64,000 nt of DNA from an uncultured Actinomycetes bacterium (GCA_963706025.1 CAVPLM010000005.1:416001-480000); one strand, 5' to 3'; shown: positions 24,986 to 55,895, counted from the first letter of the stretch. Numbers and translations are program-made. Notes: generated by a model from the sequence alone, not told the origin.

Positions 24986-25025
24986 GAAATAATTCCCCTG
25001 CTAATGACCATAATTTTATTAACAC

Positions 25026-25254: not shown

Positions 25255-25517
25255 TGATGAACGCGTACGACATCATGCATGAGTGGGACCGTGCAACCGG
25301 GAAAGCCCCGCGCTCGGACGCCGATCTTGATAGGGACGTCCCTGCGAGTCTCGGCACTGGCGACTACGAAGCATGGAAGGCCCGCCTGGAGGCACGCGAT
25401 GTCGACGCCATCACGGCAGGTATGAAGTGCTGGGGTCTACCGATCGCGCCCCTGGGCCAGTTCGAGTTGGACGCTGAGATCGAGGTCATAGAGAGACCGT
25501 ACTCCCCGGAATCCTAA
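25255..25517 (+). CDS. hypothetical protein
   Basis: SD GGGAGG then ATG; about 87 aa MMNAYDIMHEWDRATGK...; no family recognised. Confidence 0.6.
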
Positions 25518-25553
25518 GGGGTCTGCTTGACAGCGCACCCTGGACCGTCATAG

Positions 25554-25588
25554 GTGGGCCCAGCAGGACTCGAACCTGCGACCGGCCG
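25554..25588. repeat. att site: 35-bp duplicate of the tRNA-Ile2 3' half
   Basis: GTGGGCCCAGCAGGACTCGAACCTGCGACCGGCCG is identical to 31327-31361. Confidence 0.95.
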
Positions 25589-25743
25589 GCTCAGTCGTTG
25601 CAGTCACCGCAACAGTCTGTGAAGCCCACCCCATGACGGTCGTCCCAGCCGGCGCTGGGGGCTATGGGACTTTGGTTGGAGAGGAGGTCCCGGTAAGATG
25701 GCAATCGACGACCTACGAGAAGACCTACCCTCAGGAGGTACAC

Positions 25744-26046
25744 GTGAGCGAAACAAAAGCCTGCGCAACCTGCTTCTTTTGGGAAGAGCAATCCAATCGC
25801 TGCCGTAGATACGCCCCACACCCGGCCCTGGGGAACAGCGAAGACAGCGACGGAAGCCAGAACGCCTTCTGGGTCTTGACCAAAGCCGAAGACTGGTGCG
25901 GAGACTACGAGTCTATCTTGGGAGAGGAGTACGAGGAGGAAGAGGAACACGAGGAGGAGGATGACGAGGAGTGGGAAGCCGATGGCTCACTCAAATGGTC
26001 GCCGCCGCCTCCAGCACCCCCAGCGCAGAGAGGGCTTTTCAGGTGA
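25744..26046 (+). CDS. small Cys-rich phage-type protein with acidic tail
   Basis: SD AGGAGG, GTG start; CATCFFW...CRRYAP...W..T...DWCGDY; poly-Glu and poly-Pro tail. Confidence 0.65.
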   Translation: MSETKACATCFFWEEQSNRCRRYAPHPALGNSEDSDGSQNAFWVLTKAEDWCGDYESILGEEYEEEEEHEEEDDEEWEADGSLKWSPPPPAPPAQRGLFR

Positions 26047-26183
26047 GGTCCTAAGCGCAGAGTCTCTCTGGACGCGTCCAGAGCCCCGAGGACGCGATGA
26101 GAGCGACAGGGTAGGGTGCAGCATCCCCTGTTTTGGGCGCACCTATTGGCCCAACGGACGAAAGCCCCCCGGAGCCTGTGACG

Positions 26184-27063
26184 TTAGATGGGCGGGTTAC
26201 AGACCTTGCAGGGAGTGTAGCCCTGGGCTTTGGCTTCGCTCAGGCTGATGGCTATCTTGCTTTCCTCCAGATACCGGCACCCGTCGCGGTGATACTTGGT
26301 GCCGGTCGCGGTGATGTAGACGGTCGGCCCCCCTGAGGGCAGGGTTGTGGTCGTAGTGGGAGCGATTGCGGTCGTCGTTGAACCGGGTATGTGGGTCGTC
26401 GAGGTAGTGGAACCCGTGCCGCCGCCCTTGATGAGCAGCAGGTTGTAGAGCAGTTGGGCGCACTCCCCCCGGCTGGCGTTGGCGTATGCGTTCCAGCTGT
26501 AGGAGAGGCCTACCAGACCGTCCAGTAGGTGATTGAACTCTGCCTTCCTGATGTTGGCCCCGTGGGTGGCGTCGGAATAGTTGAGAACCCCTACCCAACC
26601 AGCCGGGGGAGCCTCAAGATCAGCCCCACCGGCTCTCACCACCATGGTTATCACCTGTTGCCGGGTGATCTCTTTGCAGGGGCCGGAAGGTATTGTCCGG
26701 ATAGCCGGTGGTGAGACCGGTTCGCGCCGCAACCGCGATGTAGTTGTCAGGGTAGAGCGGATCGATGGAATCGACGGGTAGGACATCCTTGAAGGGGCAG
26801 ACGTCGTCTTCTGTGGTCTGGAAGCCCATGGTAAGGACGATCATCTTGGCGAACTGCTGACGCTTGACCAGATCCTCCGGTCCGAAGTTGCCGTTCGCAT
26901 ACCCACCGATGATGCCCCGCGCGGAGAGCTCGGTGATGGCGGTGACATACGGATGAGTAGAAGGAACGTCCGGGAACAAGCCGGAAGCAAGCGCCGGTAC
27001 GACGATGAGCACTACTGCCGCCAGACTCAGAAGAATCCCGGTGACCCACCGTCTTGCGCGCAT
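26184..27063 (-). CDS. S-layer homology (SLH) protein with C-terminal Ada-like metal-binding domain, +1 frameshift near 26678
   Basis: Signal peptide; FPDV, GIIGGY.NG.FGP..V.RQQ, GYPDNTFRP then ITRQQ; Thr-rich linker; VYITATGTKYHR.GC...GYTPCKVC. Confidence 0.82.
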
Positions 27064-27212
27064 GTGCGATTCCCCCTGTCTAGCGATTGAGCAAACTGTA
27101 GAGCACTACGCAGACCTCGCCCCGAGTCGCGGGAGTGAGAAGCGTATGCGCTTTACCGGCCGTTCGCTCGGGTACGTAGTGGTGGAGGATCGGCTCCTCT
27201 CACCGGAATCAC

Positions 27213-29249: not shown

Positions 29250-29620
29250 CGTCGTCTACCCCCTGAGGCGCACCACGCCGGATCCAGGACGAGCTCAATC
29301 TAGCATGGGGCTCTTGGCACGTACAGTCGCTCAATGGAGGCAGGCAGTTCAGGGTGATCCACCACACCACGCAAGGATGCCCTCAAAAGAGGAAGCGAAC
29401 ACTATGACCTCGTGGTGTTCGTAGCAGCTTCGAGTTTCCTGACCCCTCCCGCCTGACGACTGCGCGTTGCGCAAGTTCGGAGCCGGGAGCCGTGTACTAC
29501 GGCCCGATGGCTCCCCAGGTTCTTGGGTTCCGCGGCGCACCGTGGGAATGCCTCCTGAGCCCAAGTAGCACGCCGAGCGGGGAAACCCCCGTCTCCGCTC
29601 TTGGTGTCAGGTCGCAACGG

Positions 29621-29830
29621 CTACGAGGCCCGGAGGATTGCGGCCAACTCAGCTATGTCCAACTCGTTCACAGCCGTGGCAAAGCGATTCCTTGCGCCGA
29701 TAGAACCACCCTGGGCCCGCTTCTTGAGGGCCCGGGTCAGAGAAGCAAGAAGACGCCCCGCCTGTTCCTTGTTGTCCACACCGGGCTGCAACACCACGCG
29801 GTCTATCTGGACGCCATTCATGTAAATCAA
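29621..29830 (-). pseudogene. 3' fragment of an unknown phage-like gene
   Basis: Open frame with no SD, abutting an opposite-strand recombinase fragment. Confidence 0.3.
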
Positions 29831-29847
29831 GAGGTAGCCAGCCGGTC

Positions 29848-30153
29848 GAGAAGCAGCGCCGTTCAGGTTCTCTCCGTACTGTCCAGGGCTACTCCAGCAT
29901 GCTCCAGGACTCCTTCGGCCGAGTCGGCAAAGCCCCAGATAAGGTCACGGTTCAGGAGGTCTTTGTCTGGGCCCATGGCAAGGGAGTCTCGGGCAAAGAC
30001 CCCTCCCCGGTCACCATCGGCGTCCGCATAGCCCGTCTATCTTCCTTCTACCGCTTCCTGCAACGGATGGACGTCGTCATCAGCAACCCCTGTGACAAGC
30101 TGGAGAGACCGCGGACTACCAGTACCACCGCCCGGGGACCTCTCCTACCTTAG
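29848..30153 (+). pseudogene. tyrosine recombinase N-terminal (core-binding) fragment
   Basis: EKQRRSGSLRTVQGY...SP.TI..RIA.LSSFYRFL......NPC..LERP; no catalytic domain follows. Confidence 0.75.
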
Positions 30154-30286
30154 CCGCCCCCGCGAGGAGGGGAATCCGACCCTGCTGTAGATGCTGCTCT
30201 ACCGTGCGTCGCTTCGAAGCACCCGAAGCGAGGGTTCTGGGCTCTATGGAGCCACGAAGAGTGCGTGGAGCGATTCTCGAAACCCA

Positions 30287-30405
30287 CTACCAGTCGCGCT
30301 CGACCGGAGCAATACCGACACGGTAGTAGAACCCCAACTGCTCCCACAGACGAGCAAACAAAGCGCGGTTCTCCCGCTCCACCTTGACTAGCGGATGGAC
30401 GTGCA
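30287..30405 (-). pseudogene. C-terminal fragment resembling P27-family phage terminase small subunit
   Basis: HPLVKVERENRALFARLWEQLG resembles the HP...ER..R..F.R...QLG pattern of such proteins. Confidence 0.45.
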
Positions 30406-31274
30406 GGGCGCCGCTGACGGCCGATGACGTGGAAGCCTTCTGCAATCGGGCACTCAAGACCGGCCGCGTCGTGAAGCCGACAAAGGACACCGACAGGCCC
30501 GACGCTGAGGCGGCGCCACCGGATACCACCCTCTCGCCGCGTACCGTCCAATACTGCCACGCGGTACTACGCATGGTCCTGCAGACGGCCCTCAGACGGC
30601 GCCTGGTGCATCAGAACGTGGCCGCCTTGGCATCAGCGCCCAAGGTATCCCGCGAGCCCGTGCGGCCCTTCACGGTGGAAGAGTCCAAGCAGTTCATCGA
30701 GAAGGCGGCCGGCGAGCCCCTCGAGGCCCTCTACGTGGTCCCCTTGGTGCGGGGCTTGCGCCGCGGTGAGGTATTCGGCTTGTGTTGGGAAGACGTGGAT
30801 TCGGAAGAAGGGCGGCTATGGGTCCGCCATGCTCTGCAGCGGCAAGCGAAGAAGGGCCTGGTCATGGTAGAGCCCAAGTCGCGCTCCAGCCGGCGCCCGC
30901 TCGCCCTACCCCCGTTCGTGGTGACAGTGCTCAAGGATCACCGCAAGCGACAGATGGAGCAGCGCCTCGCTATGGGCCGCAAGTGGCAGGACTCCGGCCA
31001 CGTGATTGTGATGGAGAATGGACGCCCCATGTCGCCCGACTTCGGCTACAAAGAGTTCTCAGCGTTCCTCGAGCGGGCGGAGCTCCGGCACGTACGCTTT
31101 CACGATCTGCGCCACTCCTGCGCGTCCCTACTGTTCGCGCAAGGCTGCAGCCTGCGTCTGGTCAAAGAGATCCTCGGGCACTCGCAGATAGCACTCACGG
31201 CGGACACCTACACGCACCTTTTGCCAGAAGCGGATCGGGAAGCGGCAGCGGCCATGCAGAACATGCTCGGCTGA
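30384..31274 (+). CDS. tyrosine integrase, probably 5'-truncated
   Basis: GLRRGE, K (EPKS), HDLRHS, LGHS, DTYTH catalytic set intact; arm-binding N-terminus not seen. Confidence 0.9.
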   Translation: MTSGWTCRAPLTADDVEAFCNRALKTGRVVKPTKDTDRPDAEAAPPDTTLSPRTVQYCHAVLRMVLQTALRRRLVHQNVAALASAPKVSREPVRPFTVEESKQFIEKAAGEPLEALYVVPLVRGLRRGEVFGLCWEDVDSEEGRLWVRHALQRQAKKGLVMVEPKSRSSRRPLALPPFVVTVLKDHRKRQMEQRLAMGRKWQDSGHVIVMENGRPMSPDFGYKEFSAFLERAELRHVRFHDLRHSCASLLFAQGCSLRLVKEILGHSQIALTADTYTHLLPEADREAAAAMQNMLG

Positions 31275-31276
31275 GA

Positions 31277-31297
31277 TTGGCAACACGTTTGGCAACA
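31277..31297. repeat. candidate integrase arm-type binding sites
   Basis: TTGGCAACA twice at 12-bp period, between the integrase stop and the att core. Confidence 0.6.
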
Positions 31298-31327
31298 TTC
31301 CAAGAGGGAAGTATTGCTGTTTTAGAG

Positions 31328-31401
31328 TGGGCCCAGCAGGACTCGAACCTGCGACCGGCCGATTATGAGTCGGCAGCTCTAACCAACTGAGCTATGGGCC
31401 C
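31328..31401 (-). tRNA. tRNA-Ile2(CAT), lysidine type (elongator Met not excluded)
   Basis: GGGCCCATAGCTCAGTTGGTTAGAGC-TGCCGA-CTCATAA-TCGGC...GGTTCGAGTCC...TGGGCCCA. Confidence 0.9.
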
Positions 31402-37976: not shown

Positions 37977-38134
37977 CCTCTCTCCCCCTCTTTCGCGGTC
38001 GCGCGCTTCGCATCTGCTTGAACAAACCTGATCCAAGTGGTTGCATCGGCGGCTGAACGGGTAGTCTGCTAACGTTGCAGACAGGCAAGATCGGCGTGGA
38101 TTCGAGTCAACCTTTCGACGATCCGGAGGAAGAA

Positions 38135-40644
38135 ATGGTCAGAGGCCCCGCAGAACTCCGACCCGACGAGATATACCGGCTTTGCGACGGGTCGATCTTC
38201 CCGTTCGAGACCACAGCGGAATTGCCCGAGTTTGCCGACATCATCGGTCAGGCCCGCGCTGTATCCTCGGTGGAGTTCGGGATGGGGATCAGCAACGACG
38301 GCTACAACATCTTCGCCGTCGGTCCTGCAGGGACGGGGAAATCCAGCACTATCCTTGGCTTCCTGTCCCGAGAGGCGGCCTCTCTTCCGGCCCCCGATGA
38401 CTGGGTCTACGTCTACAACTTCGCCAAGCCGTATCAGCCGAATGCGATCCGGATGCCGGCCGGTCGGGGTGATGAGTTCCGCAAGGATATGGAGAAGCTG
38501 GTCGAGGATCTCCAGGCCGCAATCACCCAAGCCTTCGAGAGCGAGGAATACGAGAAGCAGAAGCGGGAGATCGCCCAGCAGGTCAGCGAGCGCCAGGAGA
38601 GCAAGCTGAGCGCGCTCAGCCAGAAGGCGGAGTCAGGACAGTTCCAGATGGTACGCACCCCCGCGGGCTTGGCCTTCGCTCCCAAGACCGCAGACAACGA
38701 GACCATGTCGCGAGAGGCGTATGAAGCCCTGCCCCCCGAGGAGCAGAAACGCATCGACGACGGCCTTGAAAGCTTGAACGAAGAACTGCAGCAGATAATG
38801 CGTCTCGTCCGGCAGGACGAGCGGGCCGGCCGGGAGTCCTGGCGAGAGCTCGACCGTCAGGTCACCACGTTCGCCGCAAAGCATCTTGTTGACGAGGCCT
38901 GCGAGCGCTGGTGTGACGTGCCCGAGATGGTGGACTATCTGCAGGGCGTCCTGCAAGACGTGGTGGAGAACGCCGACGACTTCAAGAAGTCGGACGACGA
39001 GACGCCGGTTATGTTCATGGGCATGCCCATCTCTCCACGCCAGAAGGGCGAGGGCGTCTTCCGCAAGTACAAGATCAACGTTCTGGTCGACAACTCGAAA
39101 CAGACCGGAGCTCCCGTCGTCAGCGAAAGCAACCCCTTGATGGGGAACTTGGTTGGCCGGATCGAGCATCAGGCGCAATTCGGCGCTCTGCTCACCGACT
39201 TCAGCATGATCAAACCTGGAGCCTTGCACAAGGCCAACGGTGGCTTTCTCGTGCTCGACGCCAGAGATGTCCTTATGAAGCCTTATGCGTGGGACGCCCT
39301 GAAGCGCACGCTCAAGACCTCCGAGATCCGGGTGGAGGATATCGCCCAGCAGATGGGCTTCGTCACCACCGCCACCCTTGATCCGGAACCCATCCCCTTC
39401 AAGGCCAAGATCGTGCTCATCGGGGAACCCTTCATCTACTACCTGCTTTACACACAGGACCCGGAATTCCAGGAATTGTTCAAAGTCAAAGCCGACTTCG
39501 ACACCGTCGTGGACCGAACCCCGGACAACGAGCAACTGTATGCCCGCTTCATAGGCCACCTCTGCCGGCAACGCGGTCTCCCCCCTTCTCTGCCGACGGA
39601 GTCGCCCGCGTGATCGAGCAGTGTTCCCGCTTGGTCGAAGACCAGCGCAAGATGACTACCCGGTTCGTCGATGTCGCCGACCTTCTCACAGAATCCGGGT
39701 ACTGGGCGGGAAAGGGACGCCGGGGGCGGGCAAGGCCTGTGGTTCTAGGAAAGCACGTCCAGAAAGCCATAGACCAGCGGGTCTACCGCTCCAACCGGGT
39801 GGAAGAGCGGGTGCGCGAGATGATCACCGAGGCGACCGTGATGGTCGACACTCGAGGTGCAGTGGTCGGCCAGATAAACGGGCTTTCGGTCTCGTCGATA
39901 GGAGACTACATGTTCGGGCGCCCCAGCCGCATTACCGCCACGCACCGCCTGGGGGATGGCGAACTGGTGGATATCGAGCGAGAGGTGGAGATGGGCGGTC
40001 CCATCCACTCCAAAGGGGTACTGATACTGGCGGGCTATCTGGGCGCCAAGTACGCCTCCGACCGGCCTCTCTCTCTGACGGCCCGGCTCGTGTTCGAGCA
40101 ATCCTACTCCGGAGTGGAAGGCGATAGCGCTTCGTCGGCCGAGTTGTATGCCCTGCTGTCCTCGCTCTCCGGCCTGCCCATCCAACAGCGTTTCGCTGTG
40201 ACCGGTTCGGTCAACCAGCGTGGGCAGGTGCAGGCAATCGGGGGTGTCAACGAGAAGATCGAGGGCTTCTTCGCAGTGTGCAAGGCTCTGGGTCTGAGGG
40301 GCGATGAAGGCGTTCTGATCCCGAAGTCCAACGTCCGCAACCTGATGTTGAGCGAATCGGTACGGCAGGCCGTGGAGAAGGGACGGTTCCACATCTACCC
40401 CATCACGAGCATCGACGAAGGGATCACCGTGTTGACCGGCCTTCCTGCCGGTGCACTCAGCGCAAAGGGAGCGTATCCGAGGGGATCGGTCAATCGCCTC
40501 GTGGTCGACCGCCTGGCCTTCCTCACCGAAAAGGCGCGAGAAGGAGAACGCAAGAAGGACAGAACCGGAGGACGGACCAGCGCGACTGGGGACGATGGAT
40601 CGCTCCGCCCAGCGCGGAATGAGGCGACCAAGACCTCATTCTGA
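38135..40644 (+). CDS. Lon-like (LonC/LonB-type, S16) protease, -1 frameshift in a C-run near 39580
   Basis: IIGQ.RA, GPAGTGKS, IKPGALHKANGG, FKVKADF; GQINGL, HSKG, EGDSAS catalytic Ser, IGGVNEKIEGF catalytic Lys. Confidence 0.9.
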
Positions 40645-40679
40645 AACGAGTTCTAGGAAGCAGGTCGACGCCAGTTCGA

Positions 40680-40708
40680 GGTGTGAGGGGCGGCACGCCC
40701 CTCACACC
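40680..40708. terminator. hairpin between convergent genes (likely bidirectional terminator)
   Basis: GGTGTGAGGGGCG-GCA-CGCCCCTCACACC 13-bp perfect stem. Confidence 0.7.
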
Positions 40709-40722
40709 CAACCCTTCTACTC

Positions 40723-43420
40723 CTATACTCGCTCAATGCGGACCGCCGGAGTACCGGAGACCCCCCATTCGAAGAGACGGGCGGCCGGCGCCGTTGCAGA
40801 GAAGCCGGGTAGGAACACGACACCCGCCGGTACGCGTCCGGTGACCCAGGCCTCAAGCTCGATCGCCGCCTGATTGCGCCCGACGACCCTTACCCGGTCG
40901 CCGTCCGAGATACCGATGCTCGTCGCATCCGCGGGGTTGACCTCGAGTCTGGCCTCGTCGACCAAGCTGGTCAGCCCGGCCGAGCGGCGCGACCGCACAC
41001 CTGTTCCGTGGTGCTCGAGGACGCAACCAGTGAGCAGCACGAACCCATAGTCGGCATCGACCGCTGTTTCCGAGATGCCGCTTTCCACGGGCGCGAATAC
41101 GGCTTTGCCCCCGCGCGAACTCACTCACGTGCAGGACGGCAGTACCTGGGTGGTCCACTCCCGGGCAAGGCAGCTGCAGACCCTCGTCATCGAGACGGTC
41201 ATACGAGATGCCCTTGTAGCACCAGACCACGTCGGCGATCTCGCGCATCACGTCCGCGGGCTCTGCATAGGCCCAATCGCCACCAAGCCCTTTGGCCAAC
41301 CGCTGGATGATCTTCCAGTCGGGAAGCGCCTCCCCCAGTGGCGGAACCGCCGGCCGTACCCGCTGGACGAAACGCTCCACATTGGTGAAGGTGCCTTCAT
41401 CCTCACTGCTGACCACGGACGGCAGGACCACATCGGCGAACTTCGCGGTCTCTGTGAGGAAACTATCCTGCAAGACCACGCAATTCACCTTCGTCAAGGC
41501 CTGGCGAGTCCTGGCCTCGTCGGCGGCGGAGAGCGCCGGATCGGTCCCAACGACGTATAAGAAGCCGATCTCACCCTTTTCTGCGGCCTCGAGCACCTGG
41601 CTGGAGGTTCGACCGGGCACCGCAGCGGACAGGGTGGCACCCCAGGCCGCTTCCAACCTGGCGACAGCTTCGGGGTCGTTCGGTAGCGACCCTCCGGGGA
41701 GTCGGTCAGGGCGGAGGCCCATGTCGAACAGGCCCTGCGAGTTGGCGCCGGCACGCAGCGGGTAGACGCCGGTGCCCGGACGCCCGATGTTGCCGGTGAG
41801 GAGGGCCAGGTCGGTCACCGCCTTCACCGACGCTACTCCCGTTGAGCCGTGGGTCAGACCCGGTCCGAACAGGATAGCGGCAGCGGCGGCCTGGCCGTAG
41901 GCCGCGGCCGCCGCCCGCAGGACATCCGCATCTAGACCGCAGGCGGCGGCTTCGCCGGCTACGTCCACCTTCTCCAACGAAGCCAGAAAAGCGTCGAAAC
42001 CCTCCGTACGGTCCGCCACGAACTCCGCATCGTTGAGGCCGAGGTCGAGCAGGTGGCGCATCATCCCGCGAAGTAGCGCAAGATCCGTCCCCGGCTTGAT
42101 GGCCAGGTGATGCTTGGCCCGCCGGGCGAGCTCGGTGGTGCGCGGATCCACGACGATCACGGTCTTGCCCTTGCGCATCGCTCTGATCACATCGAGCGCA
42201 AGAACCGGGTCGGATTCGGTAAGGTTGGCGCCGATCACGAGGATCACGTCGGCCGCCCCCAGATCCTTGCGCGAATTGGTGGCGGGGGCCGCTCCGAAGG
42301 CGGCCGGGAGAGCTTCCTCGGAGGCAGCCTGCCAACCGTGGTCGATGGAATCGATGTTGTTCGAGCCCAGGAGTCCGCGTACCAGCTTCTGCAAGAGGTA
42401 GGCCGCTTCATTGGTGCAGTGTGTCCCACACACCGCCGCAATGGCTTGGCCCCCCTTCTCCTTCCGGACCGCCGCGGCCTTCTCGACCACCCGAGCCAGA
42501 GCTTCCTCCCACGAGGCCTCTTCCAGCTCTCCGGCAGCGCTCCTCACCAGAGGGGCAGTCAGCCGGTCGGGAGCGTCGGTGTAACCGATCCCGAAGCGCC
42601 CCTTCACGCACAGGTTGCCGGCGTTGAGGCCCTTCTCCAGTTCCGAGGCGACCCGGACCACCTTGTCCCGGTAGCTGTGCAGGACCAGACGGCAACCATT
42701 GCTGCAGTAAGAGCAGGTGGTGGCGGTCTTCGTAGTCTGCCACTCGCGCGCGCCCTGAGGAGTGCGCTGACCGATGACCGCCCCGACCGGACAGGTGCTC
42801 ACGCACTGTCCGCAGGAGACGCAACCCACTTGCTGCAAGGGGAGCCGATAGGCCGTGTCGACCTCGCTCTCGTAGCCGCGATTGAGATATCCCCAGCAGC
42901 CGATCGACATCACTTCGCGACAGATGCGTACGCATCGACCACACAGAATGCACCGGGCCCCGAAGTGAGCCACGTTCGGATGGTCGCCTGGATCGCCGGC
43001 CAGTGGTCCCCGCCAGCCCCATGGCACCATATCCACGAGATACTCGTAGGCATAGTCCTGTAGACGGCAGTCGCCGGCGGCCTCGCAGACGGGGCAATCG
43101 AGCGGATGGTTGGTCAGCAGTAGTTCCATCACGAACTTGCGCAGCTTGAGGATCTTCTCGCTGTGCGTCTCCACGACCATGCCTGCCCTGATCGCAGTCC
43201 CGCAGGCTGCCATGGGGCCGCGGGCGCCTTCCACCTCCACCAGGCACATACGGCAGGCGCCATAGGGCTCAAGACGGGGATCGTGGCACAGGGTGGGGAT
43301 GTCGACGCCTGCTTCGCGCGCCACCTCCAGGATGGTCTTGCCAGGGAGTGCCTGGATCTCCCGCCCGTTGAGGGTGAGAGTCACCGGTTGGGCCCCGGTC
43401 GGCTCGGCGGCGACGGACAT
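40723..43420 (-). CDS. FdhF/NuoG-like Fe-S molybdopterin-oxidoreductase-fold subunit lacking the catalytic Cys/Sec; +1 frameshift near 41108
   Basis: [2Fe-2S] (IPTLC...GACRMC), HPLDCPVC.....C, CILCGRCVRIC, CVSCGQCVSTCP, CSYCSNGC...LCVKGRFG; active-site region reads NNIDSIDHGWQ. Confidence 0.88.
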
Positions 43421-45309
43421 CACGACCTCCTCACAGCGTCGAATCGGCACTTGTCGTAGCATTCTCCGCACTTGATGCAAAGCTCTTGATCGATCACGTG
43501 GATTTCCTTGCGCTCTCCGGTGATGGCCTGGACCGGGCAGACACGGATGCAGGCCCGGCACCCGGTGCAGGTCCCGGGGTCGATGGAGTAGGTGGTGAGG
43601 GCTTCGCAGGCCCCCGCCCTGCATTTGTGCTCGATCACGTGCTCCTCGAACTCCTCCCGGAAGTACTTCAGAGCAGTGAGGACCGGGTTCGGGGCCGTGG
43701 TGCCCAGTCCACACAGCGAGCCGGTCCGCACTTGCTGGGCCATCTCCTCAAGGAACGTCAGGTCGCCGAGCGTGCCCTTGCCCTCACAGACCTTGTCGAG
43801 CAGATCCAGCATGCGTTTGGTGCCGATCCGGCAGGGCGGGCACTTGCCGCAACTCTCGTGTTGGGTGAAACGCAGGAAATAGCGGGCGGTATCAACGATG
43901 CAGTTGTCCTCGTCGATGACGATCATTCCACCCGAGCCGACGATCGCACCGGTCTGGTTGATAGTCTCGTAGTCGACAGGAAGATCCAGGAGCGATTCGG
44001 GCAGACAGCCACCCGAGGGGCCTCCCATCTGCACCGCTTTGAAAGCCTTGTCGTTCTTGATTCCGCCCCCGATCCCGAAAATCACTTCCCGGAGGCTCTT
44101 TCCCATCGGGACCTCCGCCAGGCCGGTGCGGTTCACCTTGCCCGCCAGGGCGAAGACCTTGGTGCCTTTGGACTTCTCGTAGCCGCGGGAGGCAAAAGCC
44201 TCTGCTCCGTTCAGGATGATCCAGGGTACTACCGAGAGGGTCTCGACATTGTTTATGTTGGTCGGACGGCCCCACAGCCCCGATTCGGCCGGGTAGGGAG
44301 GGCGCAGGCGAGGCATCCCGCGCCTGCCCTCGATGGACTCCATCATAGCCGTCTCTTCGCCGCAGACGAAGGCCCCTGCACCTTCCTTGATCGTGACATG
44401 GAAGGAGAAGCCCGAGCCCATGATGTTGTCGCCGATGAGCCCCCGTTGCTCAGCCACTTGCACGCCGATCTTGAGACGTCTAAGAGCCAGGGGGTACTCT
44501 GCCCGCACATATACGTAGCCCAGGGGGGCTCCGATCGCATACGCACCGATGGCCATACCCTCGAACACCGCGTGCGGATCGCCTTCCAACACCGAGCAGT
44601 CCATGAAGGCGCCGGGGTCGCCTTCGTCGCCGTTGCAGATGAAGTACTTGATCCCGTCCGGCGACGAATAGCCCGCAGCGAACTGCCACTTCTGGCCGGT
44701 GGGGAAACCCGCGCCTCCACGACCTCGCAGCCCCGAGCGTTTGATCTCGTCGACGACCTCCTCGGGCGACATGCTGGAGAGGACCTTGTAGAGAGCCTGA
44801 TAGCCGTCGGCCTCCAAGTAGTCGTCGATGTCCTCGGGATCGATGATCCCCACGTGCCGCAGGGTGAGCTTCTCCTGCGCCTCGTAGAAGGAAGCGAACT
44901 CGGTCGGGCCATCATCGCTAAGCACCAGCCACTTCGCGATCGGCTCCCCGCCGATGATGTGCTTCGCGATGATCTCGTCCACCATGGCCGGCGTCACCTG
45001 ACCGTAGGTGACTTTGTGAGCAGATCCGTTGCGCCTGAGTATCACCTCCACCAGCGGGTCCATGGCGCAGAGACCCTGGCAACCGGTGCCCGTGATCGAG
45101 GCGCACTGCCCCCCGCACTCATCCTCGCGGGGACGGATCACTGCGTAGACCCCTGAGAGGGCGAGCTTCTTCTCGAAGGCCTTCAGTACCTCCCGGCTCC
45201 CCGCGGCGACGCCCCCGGTACCCAAGCAGATGCGCACTTCGACTTCGGGAACGCTCAGGCGGGGGTTGCGCGGCGCCGGTCTTTCCAAGACTCGCTCGGG
45301 AGCCATCAC
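43420..45309 (-). CDS. NuoF/HydB-like NADH-binding flavoprotein subunit with C-terminal 2x[4Fe-4S]
   Basis: GLRGRGGAGFPTG, NGDEGDPGAFMD, GAFVCGEETA, GGPSGG, ESCGKCPPCR, CTGCRAC...CIKCGEC. Confidence 0.93.
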   Translation of the reverse strand: MMAPERVLERPAPRNPRLSVPEVEVRICLGTGGVAAGSREVLKAFEKKLALSGVYAVIRPREDECGGQCASITGTGCQGLCAMDPLVEVILRRNGSAHKVTYGQVTPAMVDEIIAKHIIGGEPIAKWLVLSDDGPTEFASFYEAQEKLTLRHVGIIDPEDIDDYLEADGYQALYKVLSSMSPEEVVDEIKRSGLRGRGGAGFPTGQKWQFAAGYSSPDGIKYFICNGDEGDPGAFMDCSVLEGDPHAVFEGMAIGAYAIGAPLGYVYVRAEYPLALRRLKIGVQVAEQRGLIGDNIMGSGFSFHVTIKEGAGAFVCGEETAMMESIEGRRGMPRLRPPYPAESGLWGRPTNINNVETLSVVPWIILNGAEAFASRGYEKSKGTKVFALAGKVNRTGLAEVPMGKSLREVIFGIGGGIKNDKAFKAVQMGGPSGGCLPESLLDLPVDYETINQTGAIVGSGGMIVIDEDNCIVDTARYFLRFTQHESCGKCPPCRIGTKRMLDLLDKVCEGKGTLGDLTFLEEMAQQVRTGSLCGLGTTAPNPVLTALKYFREEFEEHVIEHKCRAGACEALTTYSIDPGTCTGCRACIRVCPVQAITGERKEIHVIDQELCIKCGECYDKCRFDAVRRS

Positions 45310-45857
45310 TCCTCACTCTCCTGCCCGCTCGCGGCAGGAGAACCGCCGTTCTCCCCCTCTACCTCCGCCTGGAAGGTCTTGACGACTTCCACCGCCTTAT
45401 CCGGGGTCAGCTTGCCGTGCGCCCGGTCGTTGATCATCACGACAGGAGCCATTCCGCAGGCACCCACGCAGTGCACCTCTTCGATCGTGTACAGCATGTC
45501 CGAGGTGTTCTCACCGGCATGGATGCCGAGATGCTTCTCGATCTCGCGCGAAATGAGCGGTGCGCCGGACACATGGCAGGCGGTGCCATGGCAGCAGCGG
45601 ATGGTGTTCTTGGCGTGGGGTTGCAGTCTGAACTGGGAGTAGAAGGTGGCCACGCCGAGAGCCTGGCTGAGGGGCTCGCCAGCCGTCTCGGCCACACGAG
45701 CCATCACCTCTTCCGGCAGGTAGCCGAAGATGGCCTGTGCTCCCTGTAGGAGAGGCACAAGTGCGCCCGGTTGTCCCTCGTAGTGATCGAGTAGCTCCCG
45801 AAACTGCTCTTCCAGCTCCGGCTCGATCGTTGTCCCAGCCACAGTCCCACTCGTCAT
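45306..45857 (-). CDS. NuoE/HydC-like [2Fe-2S] subunit
   Basis: GVATFYSQF, C.GTACHV, CVGACGMAP. Confidence 0.93.
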   Translation of the reverse strand: MTSGTVAGTTIEPELEEQFRELLDHYEGQPGALVPLLQGAQAIFGYLPEEVMARVAETAGEPLSQALGVATFYSQFRLQPHAKNTIRCCHGTACHVSGAPLISREIEKHLGIHAGENTSDMLYTIEEVHCVGACGMAPVVMINDRAHGKLTPDKAVEVVKTFQAEVEGENGGSPAASGQESEE

Positions 45858-45994
45858 CGATATGGCCTCCGTAGGTCCGGGCTATTGTAGCTCGGCGTTT
45901 AGGACAGAATACAAGGATTTGTCGGTCGCCGCCCGCACCAGGCGCACCATACCCAAGGGGCCGTAGAGAGCGTCGGACCCGGCTGCGACCATGT

Positions 45995-46927
45995 TCAGGT
46001 TGTCCACTCCGACGAACACCGGTCCTTGATCACACCAGGAGTTCTAGCTTGGGCGAAGCTCTCGCCCGCTTGGAAAGAGCTGCGAACGAACGGCCCGGCC
46101 TGCACTCGAAGACCGAGAGCTTCGCCCCACTCCCGGTACCTTGCGAAGACCTCAGGGTGCACATACTCCACCACCGGGAGATGGCACGCCGAGGGCCGCA
46201 AATACTGCCCGATGGTCACCATGTGTACTCCGGCTTCCGCCACCTGACGCAGGAGATCGGCAATCTCCTCCTGCGTCTCACCCAACCCCACCATCCAGCC
46301 GGTCTTCACCACACTCTGTCGCACCAGGGCCGCCCGTCTCAGCACCATCAGGGAGCGCTCATACACTGCCTGTGGCCGAACGGTAAGGTACAGGCGGGGG
46401 ACGGTCTCGATATTGTGGTTGAAGACCTCTGGCGCTTCGGCCAACACCATGTCGAGATCCTCCATTCGACCGGCAAAATCAGGGACGAGCACTTCTAGGG
46501 TCACCCCGGGAGCTCTTGAACGGATGGCCCGCATGGTATCCACATAGTGTCCCGCCCCCCCATCTTTCAGATCGTCGCGAGTGACTGAGGTAACGACGGC
46601 GTGTAACAGTCCCAGGCGGCTCACAGCGTCGGCGACGTTCTTTGGTTCCAGGGGATCCAAAGTAGCCGGCCGTCCGGTGGCCACGCCGCAGAAGCCACAG
46701 TCACGAGTGCACACATCCCCCATGATGAGGAACGTGGCGGTGCCCGCCGCGAAACACTCGCCCAGATTGGGGCAGAGAGCGCTCTCGCAGACAGTGTGCA
46801 AGTGCCTGTCGCGGAGCAAGGTCTCCATTCTCCGCAGGGCGCCGGACTCGGGCAGTGGCTTCTTGAGCCAATCCGGCTTTCGACTCGGCCGGTCGTCCCT
46901 GCTGTCAAACACCGTGCGCTCGTTCAC
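45995..46927 (-). CDS. lipA: lipoyl synthase
   Basis: RKPDWLK, CESALCPNLGEC (CX4CX5C), CTRDCGFC, TSVTRDDL, GQYLRP, VRSSF; GTG start overlaps the larC stop. Confidence 0.95.
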   Translation of the reverse strand: MNERTVFDSRDDRPSRKPDWLKKPLPESGALRRMETLLRDRHLHTVCESALCPNLGECFAAGTATFLIMGDVCTRDCGFCGVATGRPATLDPLEPKNVADAVSRLGLLHAVVTSVTRDDLKDGGAGHYVDTMRAIRSRAPGVTLEVLVPDFAGRMEDLDMVLAEAPEVFNHNIETVPRLYLTVRPQAVYERSLMVLRRAALVRQSVVKTGWMVGLGETQEEIADLLRQVAEAGVHMVTIGQYLRPSACHLPVVEYVHPEVFARYREWGEALGLRVQAGPFVRSSFQAGESFAQARTPGVIKDRCSSEWTT

Positions 46928-48189
46928 GAGATCGAGACACCGTGTTCGAGCCGTGCGGCCGCGGCCTCGGTCGCCAGCTGCATCACGACCCTCAAAGGCA
47001 GGCCGGCCGCCGTCGCTGCGCCGGCCGCGTCTTCGTACTCCGGCGCGACACTCACCAGACGGTCGCGCCACCGGCCCCATTTCACCCTCACCTCGCGACC
47101 CGCTACCTCGACGGTCACCGTTCCCCGTGTGGCCAGCCAGCGCGAGGCCGGCTGCCGGCGGACGCCCAGCGTCCCCGTCTGTCCAAGCAGGAGTTCCACC
47201 GCGGCGGGCTCAGCGTCAGGGCGGACGAGGGCATGAACGACCACCCCTGGGCGGTCCTTCTTCATCTGAGCGGCCACGGTCCACACGTCCAGCGCTCCTG
47301 TTTCGCGCAGCAGGCGACACGTGTAGCCGATCACCTCCGGCGAGACATCGTCGAGGTTGGTCTGCAGTTCGACGACCGTATCCAGTCCCTCCTCGCCAGC
47401 GAGGGATGCACCCCGACCCTCCCACGAGCGCCCCAACAGGACCCTCAGAATATTGGGACCGTTATCCAGCTTCATACTCCCGGCGCCGTGCCCCACCTTT
47501 TCGATCTCCATCGGGGGCAGCGGGCCGGGCACAGCTCCCAGTTGACTCACCAGCAGAGCCCCCGTGGGTGTGGTCAGCTCCCGCATCTCAGGGCCTCCCA
47601 CTATCGGATAGCCTTTGAGAAGAAGGGCAGTCGCGGGCGCGGGCACACCCATCCGTCCGTGTGCGATCTCGACGGTGCCGCCTCCCACCGGGATCGGGCC
47701 CACCATGACCTTGTCGACCCCGAAGGCCTCTACCAGCACGAAGGCCCCGACCACATCGACCAGGGTATCCACTGCCCCCACCTCGTGGAAATGGATCTCC
47801 TCCACCGGACAGCCATGGACCTCGGCTTCCACCGCCGCCAGCCGCCGGACCGCAGCTAGGCTGTGAGAGCGCACCCATGCCGACAGAGACGAATCCTCGA
47901 TGATGTGTTCCATGTCGGCCAGGTGCCTGAGGGGAGCGTTCTCGGCAGCGCGTACCCGCACCCGCGTGCACGAAACGCCCCACTCCACGTCGCGTACGAT
48001 TTCCACCATGGAGTCATCCAGGTTCAAGGCGGCCAGGGCCCTCCGCAGGTCGGCTTCGAGCTTACCGCCGGCTTGATCGGTGCTCAGCAGCGCGCCCAGG
48101 AGCATGTCCCCGGACACTCCGGCCCACGGATCCAAATAGAGCAGCGTCCGGTCGATCGCCGTCGCCCCACCACCCGAGTGATCCGCCAT
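46924..48189 (-). CDS. larC: nickel pincer cofactor biosynthesis protein LarC
   Basis: GVSGDMLLGAL, HFHEVGAVD, HG.M.VPAPAT, ELTTPTGA, TNLDD, MKKDRPG, TGTLGVR, PEYED. Confidence 0.93.
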   Translation of the reverse strand: MADHSGGGATAIDRTLLYLDPWAGVSGDMLLGALLSTDQAGGKLEADLRRALAALNLDDSMVEIVRDVEWGVSCTRVRVRAAENAPLRHLADMEHIIEDSSLSAWVRSHSLAAVRRLAAVEAEVHGCPVEEIHFHEVGAVDTLVDVVGAFVLVEAFGVDKVMVGPIPVGGGTVEIAHGRMGVPAPATALLLKGYPIVGGPEMRELTTPTGALLVSQLGAVPGPLPPMEIEKVGHGAGSMKLDNGPNILRVLLGRSWEGRGASLAGEEGLDTVVELQTNLDDVSPEVIGYTCRLLRETGALDVWTVAAQMKKDRPGVVVHALVRPDAEPAAVELLLGQTGTLGVRRQPASRWLATRGTVTVEVAGREVRVKWGRWRDRLVSVAPEYEDAAGAATAAGLPLRVVMQLATEAAAARLEHGVSIS

Positions 48190-48296
48190 CCCGTTCTCCT
48201 TGTCCGCTGTCTCAGTCTCGGTGGTTGCATTCTCGCATGCCACCCCATACACTGCAGAACGTAGGCTCCGGCAACCTTCAGAATCGGGTCAAGGCA

Positions 48297-48674
48297 GTGA
48301 CACAGAGGCGCCTAGCCGACTACATAGGCTTCACGGTGCGCCGTCTGCGCGCGGACCGGGAGTTCACCTTGCAGGCCCTGGCCGACGAGTCCGGGGTCTC
48401 CAAGAGCTACCTGGGTGACATCGAGAAGGGTCGCAAGAACCCCACCACCGACGTCATAGAAGCCATTGCCGACGCGCTGGGCGTGCCGGCTCGAGAACTG
48501 CTTTACCATGCCGCGCTCGACGAGGAGGACCCGTTCCTCCAGCCGGAGCAGCTGAGCTTGGAGGAAGTGGCTGAGGAAGACGCCGAAACGCGGGAGTTGA
48601 CCCAACTGGCCAGGCGCATGCGGACCATCGATCGCCGGCTTCTGCTCGAGTTCGCCCGCAGGCTCTCGCACTAG
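48297..48674 (+). CDS. XRE-family HTH transcriptional regulator
   Basis: RRLR....TLQALA..SGVS.SYL..IE.G.KNPT...I..IA.ALGV; promoter TTGCAT-N17-TACACT at 48225-48253. Confidence 0.88.
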   Translation: MTQRRLADYIGFTVRRLRADREFTLQALADESGVSKSYLGDIEKGRKNPTTDVIEAIADALGVPARELLYHAALDEEDPFLQPEQLSLEEVAEEDAETRELTQLARRMRTIDRRLLLEFARRLSH

Positions 48675-49086: not shown

Positions 49087-49711
49087 CGCCGATAACCCCT
49101 TCTTCCCTCAGACGCGCGAGGAGAGCTCTCGCAGCCGCCCCTCGATGCGAGACGCTGTCCTTGTCCGCAGGGTCGGCCTCGGAGAGAGTCTCCGCCCATC
49201 CGAGTGGTTCGAAGATCGGATCGTACCCGAAGCCATCGCTACCACGGGGGGAGAGTGTGATGGTCCCCTCCAGCAGTCCCTCTGCTGCGGAAACCCGCGG
49301 AGTCGAGCCGGGACCGGGCTGGAGGGGCGGAAGGATGAGACACAGTGCGCACACGAAGCGCGCGGTCCGGTCCTCATGCCCGGACAACTCCGCCAGAAGC
49401 TTCCGTACGTTGTCTTCGTCAGAGGCATGATCGCCGGCGTAGCGGGCGGACCGTACCCCTGGACTGCCGTGTAGCGCCGCCACCTGTAGTCCGGAGTCGT
49501 CCGCCAACACGCCTGTTTCACCCCCGAGGGCGGCGAAGACCGTGGTGGCTTTCAGCCGGGCGTTCTCGGCGAAAGTCTCTCCGGTCTCCTCGGGTAGGGG
49601 GATCCCCGCAGGCACTGTACGCAAGTCGAAAACACCCTCCAGCAGACGCGCGAACTCTCGGGCTTTTCCCGGGTTGCGCGTCGCGAGGACTACCTTGGGA
49701 GGGGCGGTCAC
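49076..49711 (-). CDS. rdgB: non-canonical purine NTP pyrophosphatase
   Basis: LATRNPGK..E, ENA..KA, DDSGL, GFGYDP.F, SHRG. Confidence 0.95.
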   Translation of the reverse strand: MTAPPKVVLATRNPGKAREFARLLEGVFDLRTVPAGIPLPEETGETFAENARLKATTVFAALGGETGVLADDSGLQVAALHGSPGVRSARYAGDHASDEDNVRKLLAELSGHEDRTARFVCALCLILPPLQPGPGSTPRVSAAEGLLEGTITLSPRGSDGFGYDPIFEPLGWAETLSEADPADKDSVSHRGAAARALLARLREEGVIGDGS

Positions 49712-50472
49712 GGCCGGGACATGCTCCCGGTTCCGCCGGTGTATGCCTGGGCGACCACTTCCATCTGAGCCGCCTTGATCTCGGCGATGCCCTTCTGAGC
49801 CAGGTCGAGCAGTTCGTCGAGCACGTGCCGCTCGAACGGATCGGTCTCCGCGGTCGCCTGGACTTCGATCAAACGCCCGTTCCCGGTCATCACGACGTTC
49901 ATGTCCACCTGGGCGACGCAGTCCTCTTCATACTCCAGGTCCACCACCGGCATCCCCCCGACCACACCCACGCTCACAGCGGCTACGGAATCGTTCAGAG
50001 GCAGTGACCGGAACAGCTTGTTGTCCACCGCTCGCTTCAGAGCCAGATGAAGGGCGATGTAGCCCCCACTCACGGCCGCACAGCGGGTGCCACCGTCGGC
50101 TTCCACCACGTCGCAGTCGACATACACCGTGCGCTCGCCGAGGGCCGCAAGCTCGACCACAGTGCGCAGGCTCCGTCCGATGAACCGCTGGATCTCGATT
50201 GTCCGCCCCCCTTGCTTGCCTCGGACCGCTTCCCGCGGAGTACGCTCCCGAGTGGAACTGGGCAGTAGGGAGTACTCGGCCGTGACCCATCCTGCGCCGC
50301 TTCCTCGTCGCCAACCGGGGACACCGTTGACCACCTGGGCCGTGCAGAGAACACGCGTGCCGCCTAGCTCCAGAAACACCGACCCATCGGCCGTGCGCAC
50401 GAAGTCCGGGGTGATCTTCAGGCTCCGCATCTCAGCGGGACCCCGCGTGCCGGCTCCACTTCTTCCGCTCAT
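49708..50472 (-). CDS. rph: ribonuclease PH
   Basis: GWVTAEYSLLP, GRTIEIQR.IGRSLR, ADGGTRCA, DL.Y.ED, DMNVVM. Confidence 0.95.
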   Translation of the reverse strand: MSGRSGAGTRGPAEMRSLKITPDFVRTADGSVFLELGGTRVLCTAQVVNGVPGWRRGSGAGWVTAEYSLLPSSTRERTPREAVRGKQGGRTIEIQRFIGRSLRTVVELAALGERTVYVDCDVVEADGGTRCAAVSGGYIALHLALKRAVDNKLFRSLPLNDSVAAVSVGVVGGMPVVDLEYEEDCVAQVDMNVVMTGNGRLIEVQATAETDPFERHVLDELLDLAQKGIAEIKAAQMEVVAQAYTGGTGSMSRP

Positions 50473-51285
50473 ATCTGGGTCACCTCTCGGATAGGCAGTT
50501 GGAGGAAGCGCATGCCCACTTCCCTGAACTCCTCGCTGTCCCCGGTCGAGAAGAACTCGATAGGCGCCTTCCCGCCGAGGGCCGTTACCGATTGCTTTGC
50601 GCTCCAGAAGCTCCCGGACCTCCCTGGCAGTCTCCTCGGCGGAATCGATCAGGGCGACCTCGGGACCCAACAACCGGCGGAGCATCGGCGTTATCAGGGG
50701 GTAATGGGTGCATCCCAGGATGACCGTGTCGACCTCGGCCTCTTTGAGGGGAGCCACGCATCCGCGGGCGGCCTGCTCCGTCTGTTCTGAGAACACGTCG
50801 CCTTCCTGGATAAGGGGAGCCAGGCGTGGACACGCGACCGGGAACACCTCCACCCCGGCATCGAGCGTGTGGAGGGCGTGCTGGTAGGCGTTTGAGCGCA
50901 CCGTAGCTTCCGTGGCCAGCAGCCCCACCCGCCGGTTCCGCGTCTCCTGGGCTGCCGCGCGGGCTCCCGGCATCACGACCCCGACGATAGGCGTGGAATA
51001 GGCGGTCTGCAGTTGGGAGAGCGCCGCGGCCGCGGCGGAGTTGCAGGCGACGACAACCAGCTTGACCCCTCTTGCCACCAGGAAGCCCACGGCGGCAAAG
51101 GCCAAATGACGAACTTCGGCCAGAGACTTCGAACCGTAGGGGAAATTGCCCGTATCGCCCAGGTAGACGAAATCCTCATGAGGCAGGTTCACCAGACATT
51201 CGTGCAAGACCGTGAGGCCGCCGACCCCAGAATCGAAGACTCCAACGGCACGTGTGTCGGGGATGGGCGCGTCTGGTGCAGTCAT
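50469..51285 (-). CDS. murI: glutamate racemase; +1 frameshift near 50560 makes an artefactual fusion with rph
   Basis: FDSGVGG, PYG, ACNSA, LGCTHYP; the true C-terminus EFFSTGD..EF....RFL is in the shifted frame and ends in an ATGA overlap. Confidence 0.94.
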
Positions 51286-55339: not shown

Positions 55340-55421
55340 GCCAACCTCCTCGTCATTCGCGGTGACGTTCGCTCGCGATTATGGCTGAGGCCCCTCCCGT
55401 TAGGAAGGAGCCCCCGCGGTA

Positions 55422-55855
55422 GCAGCCCTGTAAGCCGGATTCTGTCCTATGGGCTGCTGGGACATGACCCCCGGCCTCCAGAATGCACTGGACGCACCCT
55501 GCGGGCGAAGCGCCATGTCCCAGCAGCCCACTTGGGTAGCCATCTATCTGTGGCCGACCGTTGCCGGACGGCTCATGCGACCAACCCGAAGGCATCGGGC
55601 GAGCAGCCCTCGAACGCCTCCCTATTCGGCCTTGCACCGGGTGGGGCTTGCCTGGCCGCTGTGTCACCACAGCGCCGGTGCGCTCTTACCGCACCATTTC
55701 ACCTTCGCAGCCGGATGAACCGGCGTGCTGTGTAATTTCTGTGGCGCTTTCCCTGGGGTTTCCCCCGCTGGACGTTATCCAGCACCCTGCTCTACGGTGT
55801 CCGGACTTTCCTCAAGAACCCGCCTTTGGCGAGTCCCTGCGACTACCCGGGCTGC
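55422..55855 (-). ncRNA. rnpB: RNase P RNA (type A)
   Basis: GAGGAAAGTCCGG and ACAGAATCCGGCTTA conserved regions; P1 GCAGCCC/GGGCTGC; -10 TATACT at 55862-55867. Confidence 0.97.
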
Positions 55856-55895
55856 ATATCGAGTATACCAGTATGCAGTCCCGGCAGGTCGGCCC

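Follow-up and report, generated by a model that had tools for sequence, protein, structure and literature searches.

What does a protein that goes by the name of formate dehydrogenase do once the residues that would hold its metal are gone? The question is raised by three overlapping genes, bfuC, bfuB and bfuA, in a stretch of 64,000 nucleotides from an uncultured Actinomycetes bacterium (GCA_963706025.1 CAVPLM010000005.1:416001-480000; this whole stretch is called the window, and coordinates are counted within it). An earlier reading of the same DNA (the original prediction) had described a HydABC-type, probably electron-bifurcating module with a catalytically dead formate dehydrogenase (Fdh)-like subunit. 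Our analysis suggests that the trio is probably a three-subunit flavin/Fe-S electron-bifurcating enzyme of the HydABC/BfuABC family, in which BfuA would serve as a pterin-less Fe-S conduit to a third redox couple.

The BfuB and BfuC core

All three genes lie on the minus strand in the order C-B-A and are joined by TGATG stop/start overlaps. bfuC (45306..45857; PF01257, E 4.2e-46) encodes a NuoE/HydC-like protein of 183 amino acids (aa) with one [2Fe-2S] site, bfuB (43420..45309; Pfam Complex1_51K, NADH_4Fe-4S and C-terminal 2x Fer4) a NuoF/HydB-like protein of 629 aa, and bfuA a large FdhF-like protein whose start is likely the ATG at 43418-43420, overlapping the bfuB stop. The Pfam matches and the junctions bear out the three overlapping genes of the original prediction, and PF01512, PF10589, PF00037/PF12838, PF01257 and PF13510/PF00111 all score over the Pfam cut-offs in the trio. 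Along BfuB follow an N-terminal thioredoxin-like region, the sites for flavin mononucleotide (FMN) and nicotinamide adenine dinucleotide (NAD(H)), the NuoF [4Fe-4S], an extra site termed B2 and a C-terminal 2x[4Fe-4S]. The GAFMD (residue 233) and GGPSG (residue 429) motifs and the C-terminal clusters are present as claimed earlier; so is the thioredoxin-like region, its 2Fe-2S_thioredx match being weak (E 0.0012, under the gathering score), as is the match to SLBB (E 0.0029, also under the gathering score). The original prediction had further linked the AFM motif to bifurcating enzymes; the passages of PMC7311640 drawn on here make no mention of such a link.

In the passages of Schut et al. 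(2022, PMC9304861) drawn on here, the bifurcating family is built on a BfuBC core that carries clusters B1-B5 and C1: BfuB joins the NuoF FMN domain, the NuoF [4Fe-4S] and a 4Fe-4S ferredoxin-type domain, BfuC is NuoE-like, and BfuA carries at least 2Fe-2S and 4Fe-4S ferredoxin-type domains. The same passages lay stress on the B2 site, which in non-bifurcating homologues is without its His, and list the non-bifurcating Nqo1/NuoF and FdsB as lacking the B2-B5 sites. The window trio has the domains of this BfuABC/HydABC definition, the B2 site, and the B3/B4 and B5 sites. By a manual, residue-by-residue reading of the alignment, C470, C508, H557, C563 and C568 of BfuB fall on the B2 ligands C438, C476, H525, C531 and C536 of NiFe-HydB (7t2r_B), and these five, the B1 cysteines and the eight C-terminal (B3/B4) cysteines are kept in 26/26 orthologues. 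In the N-terminal domain C28, C77 and C81 are likewise found in 26/26 orthologues and C65 in 25/26; the second canonical cysteine of this domain is Gly in the window BfuB, C65 sits in an insertion, and we propose C65 as the fourth ligand of the N-terminal (B5) cluster. BfuC keeps C89, C94, C130 and C134 in 29/29 orthologues. By every sequence criterion applied here, BfuB and BfuC would make up a complete bifurcating core, and this full BfuB/HydB cofactor signature backs the HydABC-type module of the original prediction.

The scores against solved structures are in keeping with this. BfuB matches NfnB of Caldicellulosiruptor saccharolyticus (Csac; 9bov_B) best, at 796 bits (E 3.5e-238), then StnB of Sporomusa ovata (8oh5_B, 764 bits), T. 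sibiricus NfnB (9n5u_B, 751), NiFe-HydB (7t2r_B, 747) and the FeFe-HydBs (644-731), as against at most 434 bits for the non-bifurcating FdsB/NuoF (FdsB 360).

If the trio were instead the NADH-input module (NuoEFG) of a complex I whose other subunits lie elsewhere in the genome, it could represent the predicted 'Nuo-Bfu' type, for which 51 Nuo-type Bfu clusters are counted in the cited passages of PMC9304861. The NCBIfam NuoE, NuoF and NuoG models are indeed among the top matches, and the Fe-S half of BfuA is matched by NuoG from mycobacteria and mitochondria (E 3.5e-70 or weaker). However, all three proteins stay under the curated NCBIfam cut-offs (NuoE 136.1 vs 141, NuoF 472 vs 559, NuoG 394 vs 470), the Fdh-alpha model TIGR01591 scores higher (582.5 bits for P0002, an intact homologue of BfuA, vs a cut-off of 666.25), and the C-terminal Molydop_binding domain is kept. 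No nuo gene was found in the window open reading frames (ORFs) scanned or in 34 related loci (L001-L034) from metagenome-assembled genomes (MAGs) of uncultured Actinomycetes, Gaiellales and Thermoleophilia, and BfuB has the B2-B5 sites that non-bifurcating Nqo1/NuoF lack according to PMC9304861. We therefore hold a complex I module to be very unlikely.

The active-site loop and the fate of the large subunit

The N-terminal part of bfuA (41125..43423, minus strand, 766 aa, FdhF/FdsA-like; Fer2_4, NADH-G_4Fe-4S_3, Fer4_Nqo3, Molybdop_Fe4S4 and Molybdopterin) encodes a [2Fe-2S] site, a His-ligated [4Fe-4S], 2x[4Fe-4S], the [4Fe-4S] of the molybdenum (Mo) domain and a pterin-like domain; a Molydop_binding-like C-terminal part follows at 40723..41107 on the same strand (PF01568, E 1.2e-16). 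The degenerate active-site loop, NNIDSIDHGWQAAS, occupies 42320..42361 (minus strand). In the HMMER alignment with R. capsulatus FdsA (6tg9, E 3.5e-150) its Trp (codon TGG, 42332-42334) falls on the Mo-ligand Cys and its Gln on the adjacent His, which we take to be Cys386 and His387 of FdsA, so that the loop and the replacement of both residues stand as first described. The C-terminal piece has LLTGC in place of the pterin-binding TGR of canonical enzymes, again as described (LTGC, residues 31-34 of this piece; Cys codon 41023-41025, hand-derived). The window reads AGANSQG in place of GQNNVQG; the Arg of 'PLR' (41756..41758, minus strand, hand-derived from the alignment residue index) is kept in the window and replaced by L/Y/K/S/A in relatives. 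It aligns with an Arg invariant in canonical relatives, presumably Arg333 of E. coli FdhH.

The missing pair is a property of the family. In a MAFFT alignment of the 120 best bfuA homologues, both the Cys and the His are replaced in 117, at identities down to 51%; P0118 and P0120 (46-47% identical) are the only rows that read CARLCH, and P0119 is garbled at the site. Trp-Gln is confined to the closest relatives in this set (P0001-P0004, P0008 and P0115), and across the family the site holds W/E/D/G/H/K/R/N. A DNA motif search located the site in 24/34 related loci: none of these 24 has TGA, TGC or TGT there, 20 have a Glu or Asp codon and two have TGG, the codon seen in the window, L001 and L003. 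Because these relatives have mostly Glu or Asp and never TGA, TGC or TGT, the Trp would have replaced an acidic residue at a late stage; a misreading and a mutated selenocysteine (Sec) codon would both be excluded, and the loss of the metal ligand would be old. The Trp-Gln pair itself would then be a quirk of one lineage that has no special meaning and is not a signature. Thus, of the claim that Sec-His had become Trp-Gln, the absence of the Cys/Sec-His pair stands, whereas a descent of the Trp from TGA or TGC does not; the comparison with orthologues that had been called for upholds the dead site itself.

The Sec idea was also followed at the RNA level, as had been recommended: an Rfam scan of the whole window at gathering thresholds returned six tRNAs and the RNase P RNA, and no selenocysteine insertion sequence (SECIS) or riboswitch. 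With TGG in the window and mostly Glu/Asp codons elsewhere, a Sec/SECIS arrangement is ruled out.

As the original prediction had it for the five Fe-S motifs, the clusters are intact, all 20 ligands being kept in 93-94 of the 94 full-length family members. Compared with P0002, these members average 73-93% identity across the Fe-S domains, 60% across the pterin-like domain, 45% across the linker and 54% across the C-terminal domain. To approximate the requirements of a functional enzyme we took the positions conserved at 90% or more in 40 canonical relatives with the Cys-His-Arg residues; of these the family retains 98.6% in the Fe-S region (n = 30), 70% in the pterin domain (n = 61) and 53% in the C-terminal domain (n = 17). 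The losses number at least 17 canonical-invariant positions. Among them are the Cys-His pair, the Cys upstream of it and the Arg of 'CAR', most of GQNNVQG, and His403, His524, Gly556, Gln557, Asn558, Val560, Arg683, the TGR Arg, His872, Asn879 and Lys888, some of which (TGR Arg, His872, Lys888) we take to be pterin contacts. Between the window and L004 the ratio of nonsynonymous to synonymous substitution rates (dN/dS) is 0.05 in the Fe-S part and 0.18 in both the pterin-like and the C-terminal part, and because of these values the whole gene appears to be maintained, with the pterin-like domain relaxed yet under purifying selection, as a putative scaffold. These losses would exclude formate dehydrogenase chemistry for BfuA, in agreement with the dead large subunit of the original prediction, for which no conventional Mo/tungsten (W) formate dehydrogenase seems possible.

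Could BfuA still be a molybdo- or tungsto-enzyme that binds its metal through an unconventional ligand, such as the Asp of the conserved 'IDH' or a Glu/Asp that took the place of the Cys, and catalyses a reaction other than formate oxidation? The purifying selection on the pterin-like and C-terminal domains (dN/dS 0.18-0.29) and the 70% retention in the pterin domain would fit such an enzyme, as would the Glu/Asp found at the former Cys in 20/24 loci and an Asp three residues upstream that is common in the family. However, at least 17 canonical-invariant positions are gone (the TGR Arg, His403, His524, Gln557, Asn558, His872 and Lys888 among them), the site varies within the family, and so does the Arg equivalent (R/L/Y/K/S/A). 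Moreover, retention in the pterin domain is equal to that in three representatives with the domain architecture of NfnA (69%), and the cryo-electron microscopy of Csac NfnA, in the part of PMC11829005 cited here, gave an incomplete site and no pterin density. For StnC, another protein that bears a formate dehydrogenase annotation, the part of PMC7483475 cited states that formate:methyl viologen activity was absent. We think a surviving Mo/W enzyme most improbable.

The original prediction treated the large subunit as one intact gene and overlooked a +1 frameshift that splits bfuA in a G5 homopolymer (41108..41112, minus-strand gene) and leaves the Molydop_binding domain on a separate ORF of 133 aa (40723-41124). 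In L001-L003 the orthologous DNA is one base shorter at this run (G4) and reads continuously through F-S-R-G-K-A, and bfuA homologues of about 898 aa are uninterrupted. A genuine frameshift would make the locus a decaying pseudogene remnant, its dead site a sign of lost function, and the split gene is what such a remnant would look like. On the other side, the shift falls in a homopolymer, and the convergent Lon-like gene (38075-40644, plus strand) is likewise broken, in a C6 run (39580-39585) that divides it into ORFs of 512 and 344 aa, its orthologue in L004 being one ORF of 856 aa. Several bfuA relatives on very long contigs are truncated as well (e.g. P0004 and P0008), many related records have contig names typical of long-read assemblies, and past the shift dN/dS is still 0.18 against L004 (residues 711-899). 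For these reasons the frameshift is probably a long-read homopolymer consensus or assembly error; with orthologues intact and a dead site that is old and family-wide, we regard a pseudogene as extremely improbable.

Family placement and likeness to known enzymes

Because the scores lie under the curated cut-offs, NCBI gives the neutral name 'molybdopterin-dependent oxidoreductase'. JGI names relatives 'formate dehydrogenase alpha subunit', as NCBI does P0108 (Asn-Gln at the site), which is the mislabelling that had been foreseen. Dead Fdh-like large subunits are common and already documented structurally in NfnA: among the 149 nearest cluster representatives at 50% identity, the Cys-His pair is present in 44, other residues in 97 and gaps in 8. 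In a FastTree phylogeny of 162 sequences the family of the window BfuA is one clade (support 1.0), with P0155 (0.81) and three proteins of 1230-1276 aa (0.73), NfnA/StnC-type by Pfam, as neighbours; family and neighbours lie inside a clade of 30 sequences (0.94) that has no Cys-His member. NfnA-type proteins would thus be a near sister group, with moderate support (0.73-0.81).

Among the enzymes most like the trio is Nfn-Bfu (NfnABC of C. saccharolyticus, 9bov; StnABC of S. ovata, 8oh5), which has the same gene order C-B-A and supplies the closest solved relative of BfuB (796 and 764 bits); according to the cited part of PMC11829005 its large subunit also has an Fdh/NuoG-like domain with Fe-S clusters and a degenerate pterin site. 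Forty-three more distant loci (L035-L077) agree with this, as all 35 with enough flank hold operons that run NfnC-NfnB-NfnA like the trio, and the BfuB encoded there shares 52-57% identity with that of the window. Unlike NfnA, the window BfuA has no GltD/NfnL-like domain for flavin adenine dinucleotide (FAD) and NADPH: it gives no Fer4_20 or Pyr_redox_2 match, and both are present in P0135, P0237, P0242 and the L035-L077 loci with enough flank. Conversely, it keeps a NuoG-type His-cluster motif and the C-terminal Molydop_binding domain, which the NfnA-type P0135, P0237 and P0242 both lack. A search for fused forms of BfuA among proteins of more than 1341 aa gave nothing above 43% identity, and what it did return were GltD-fused Fdh-type proteins and tandem duplicates. 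Three giant relatives, 1405-1788 aa in length (P0270, P0271 and P0121), were noted on the way, P0270 and P0271 being named formate dehydrogenase subunit alpha by NCBI, and P0121 being, by Pfam, a tandem duplication of the entire NuoG/Fdh-like architecture.

Other systems share parts of the design. Type 1 Fdh-Bfu (e.g. Carboxydothermus hydrogenoformans) resembles the trio in having three subunits and a BfuA that combines Fe-S domains with an Fdh domain, the latter beside cluster A5, as the cited passages of PMC9304861 describe it; the window BfuA differs in missing the Cys/Sec-His pair and many canonical-invariant positions. FdsABG of R. capsulatus (6tg9) has the same NuoE/NuoF/Fdh trio and is among the best full-length solved matches of the large subunit, but FdsA has the Cys-His pair that BfuA lacks, and FdsB is without the B2-B5 sites (PMC9304861). 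In NiFe-HydABCSL (7t2r) HydB is close to BfuB (747 bits) and HydA matches BfuA (E 5e-64); in the passages cited (PMC9304861) NiFe HydA has a [4Fe-4S] at the place taken by the H cluster in the FeFe enzyme, the NiFe site being housed in separate HydSL subunits, whereas no hydS or hydL was found near the window module in the ORFs scanned. SfrAB of Geobacter sulfurreducens, compared by its description alone, combines an Fdh/NuoG-like alpha subunit with a GltD-like NADPH subunit (cited part of PMC7483475) and so resembles two loci discussed below (L004 and L034), while the partners of BfuA in the window are NuoE/NuoF-like and not GltD-like.

Gene context, a cassette swap and the third couple

The neighbourhood of the trio is the synteny of its lineage. 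In the 34 related loci the order is a major facilitator superfamily gene, murI, rph, rdgB, a zincin, an ORF, larC, lipA, bfuC, bfuB and bfuA, followed convergently by lon, lexA, pgm, nadE, metX and metW; the order bfuCBA is kept in 30/34, with a swapped cassette in two and truncation by the contig end in two. The 'radical SAM' gene upstream of bfuC is lipoyl synthase (lipA), and LarC precedes it. These are housekeeping genes that give no clue to function, and an attempt to derive function from them was dropped. Pfam scans of 45 further ORFs across the window found no nuo, fdhD, hydrogenase or molybdenum cofactor biosynthesis domains, which agrees with the claim that no such genes are adjacent, and no other redox module among the ORFs sampled; a promoter/terminator scan of 40300-48400 gave counts not above those of shuffled sequence.

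Some features of the surroundings are recorded for their own sake. The longest-ORF calls of larC and lipA overlap by 157 bases (46924-47080), and the lipA start is most likely further downstream, since the lipoyl synthase model begins at residue 61-68. A 525-aa ORF at 49708-51285 (minus strand) joins Asp_Glu_race (glutamate racemase) and RNase PH domains and is matched at full length in L015 and L025; it could be a natural fusion, or a frameshift or read-through. Another ORF, of 538 aa at 22292-23908 (minus strand), has NIF3/DUF34 and a C-terminal RNase H-like (RVT_3) domain. A tyrosine integrase (30384-31274) adjoins a tRNA gene (31328-31401), with ORFs that lack Pfam families upstream of it (e.g. 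27213-29249, 678 aa) and a G+C content lowered to about 0.605 in the 2-kb windows at 24-26 kb and 28-30 kb, and about 24600-31400 is possibly a small integrated element. A class A RNase P RNA lies at 55416-55858 (minus strand, 265 bits), and the six tRNA genes are scattered over the window.

In two relatives, L004 and L034, whose BfuA is 80-84% identical to that of the window, bfuC and bfuB are absent and no remnants of them are left in the region. Exactly between lipA and bfuA sits instead a cassette (L004:7327-9690; L034:7643-9940) for a PyrK/NfnS-like protein of 281 aa and a GltD/NfnL-like protein of 479 aa, with a G+C content of 57-59% vs 67% in the flanks; the replacement reaches to within a few bases of the bfuA start, and the junction before bfuA still reads GGAGGTCGTGATG, the same as in the window. 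The NfnL-like protein shares 80-91% identity with proteins attributed to Acidobacteria and Desulfobacterales, and the 120 matches listed for it, all at least 80% identical, come from many phyla. As these nearest homologues are named from other phyla, the sequences point to horizontal acquisition of the cassette. The two loci are each other's nearest relatives (synonymous divergence, dS, 0.67 vs about 1.2 to others), and their bfuA has a dN/dS of 0.21, which implies that the subunit was retained after the swap.

Taken together, the following scheme is the one we favour. By sequence, the BfuB/BfuC core comprises the FMN/NAD(H) site, the NuoF-type [4Fe-4S], B2, the thioredoxin-like cluster, the ferredoxin-facing 2x[4Fe-4S] and the [2Fe-2S] of BfuC, and BfuA, Fdh/NuoG-like, has its five clusters, with the Mo/W ligand and a set of canonical-invariant residues gone. 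BfuA would hold no pterin and be unable to oxidise formate; it may form the Fe-S conduit of the medium-potential branch, ending at a third partner encoded outside the operon, or in a dead-end electron buffer as proposed for NfnA, and the complex would couple NAD(H) and ferredoxin to a third couple.

Several observations weigh against this scheme. The case for bifurcation consists of cofactor-site conservation. In pairwise comparison BfuA scores 506 bits with the genuine formate dehydrogenase FdsA, as against 311 bits with solved NfnA, and its tie to NfnA-type proteins in the tree has moderate support. The gene is frameshifted in the present assembly. Purifying selection and 70% retention in the pterin-like domain leave a possible residual ligand-binding role. 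The context of housekeeping synteny is silent on function, and neither in the window ORFs scanned nor in the 34 loci was a third-substrate module, an NADPH-binding domain or an extra subunit found, as the original prediction had said of a catalytic partner encoded nearby. Finally, BfuA is under selection in L004 and L034 without an adjacent bfuCB, which misfits a role tied solely to BfuBC.

This absence of a partner gene in cis across 34 loci raises the question of whether there is a third partner at all. The trimer could be a plain ferredoxin:NAD+ oxidoreductase with BfuA as a structural or electron-buffering subunit; the cited part of PMC11829005 describes the A2-A4-A5 branch of NfnA as leading nowhere or perhaps serving as an overflow pool, and NfnAB-like genes, for another soluble enzyme that balances pyridine nucleotides and ferredoxin, replace bfuCB in two relatives. 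However, the five clusters of BfuA are invariant, including the His-ligated one, which in NiFe-Bfu leads to partner subunits, and the characterised Bfu enzymes are tightly coupled three-substrate systems (passages of PMC9304861). We consider a trimer without a third partner rather unlikely.

If a third couple exists, our leading guess, a tentative one, is NADP(H), reached by way of a GltD/NfnL-type flavoprotein whose gene lies elsewhere; just as cautiously we put forward a catalytic module, for instance a hydrogenase, that is likewise encoded apart from the trio. We tilt towards a putative role in pyridine-nucleotide/ferredoxin balancing, possibly with NADP(H) through a separate NfnL-type protein, because of the cassette swap, of the Thermococcaceae, which in the cited passages of Schut et al. 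(PMC9304861) have either Nfn-Bfu or NfnAB and never both, and of two distant loci (L049:3130-5750, an Ignavibacteriaceae MAG; L059:3149-5777, a Ca. Tepidiaquacella MAG) in which NfnS/NfnL-like genes, 58-63% identical to those of L004, lie directly upstream of complete Nfn-Bfu operons. No NfnL-type gene was found near the module in the other 32 loci. As BfuA is usually coupled to BfuBC, yet stays under selection where bfuCB has given way to NfnS/NfnL, one may also speculate, with considerable doubt, that the pterin-less large subunit is a free-standing Fe-S hub for interchangeable pyridine-nucleotide/ferredoxin modules. The trimer of the window would then be a Bfu enzyme of a 'split' or minimal kind not described before, and no evolutionary leftover, with its third couple in trans or bound by the repurposed Rossmann-like domain that once held the pterin.

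Two features were added by the present analysis: a full core and a full five-cluster wire without a third-substrate site in cis, and, in two relatives, an NfnAB-like cassette that has taken the exact place of the core. The combination of core and wire matches none of the four Bfu types in the passages of Schut et al. (PMC9304861) drawn on here, and a literature search that did not extend to the supplementary table of that paper, a possible list of members, found no description of this actinobacterial module. The family is not small: it forms over 100 clusters when grouped at 90% identity, and its hosts are uncultured Thermoleophilia/Gaiellales-like Actinomycetota of soils and digesters, represented by 34 species-level genomes. 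Some sources label the large subunits 'formate dehydrogenase alpha subunit' although the canonical mechanism would be unusable, and inferences on carbon and formate cycling drawn from that label would be wrong. The exchange of bfuCB for NfnAB-like genes offers a natural experiment on the interchangeability of bifurcating modules, and a partner identified, or shown not to exist, would widen the view of what Bfu enzymes couple.

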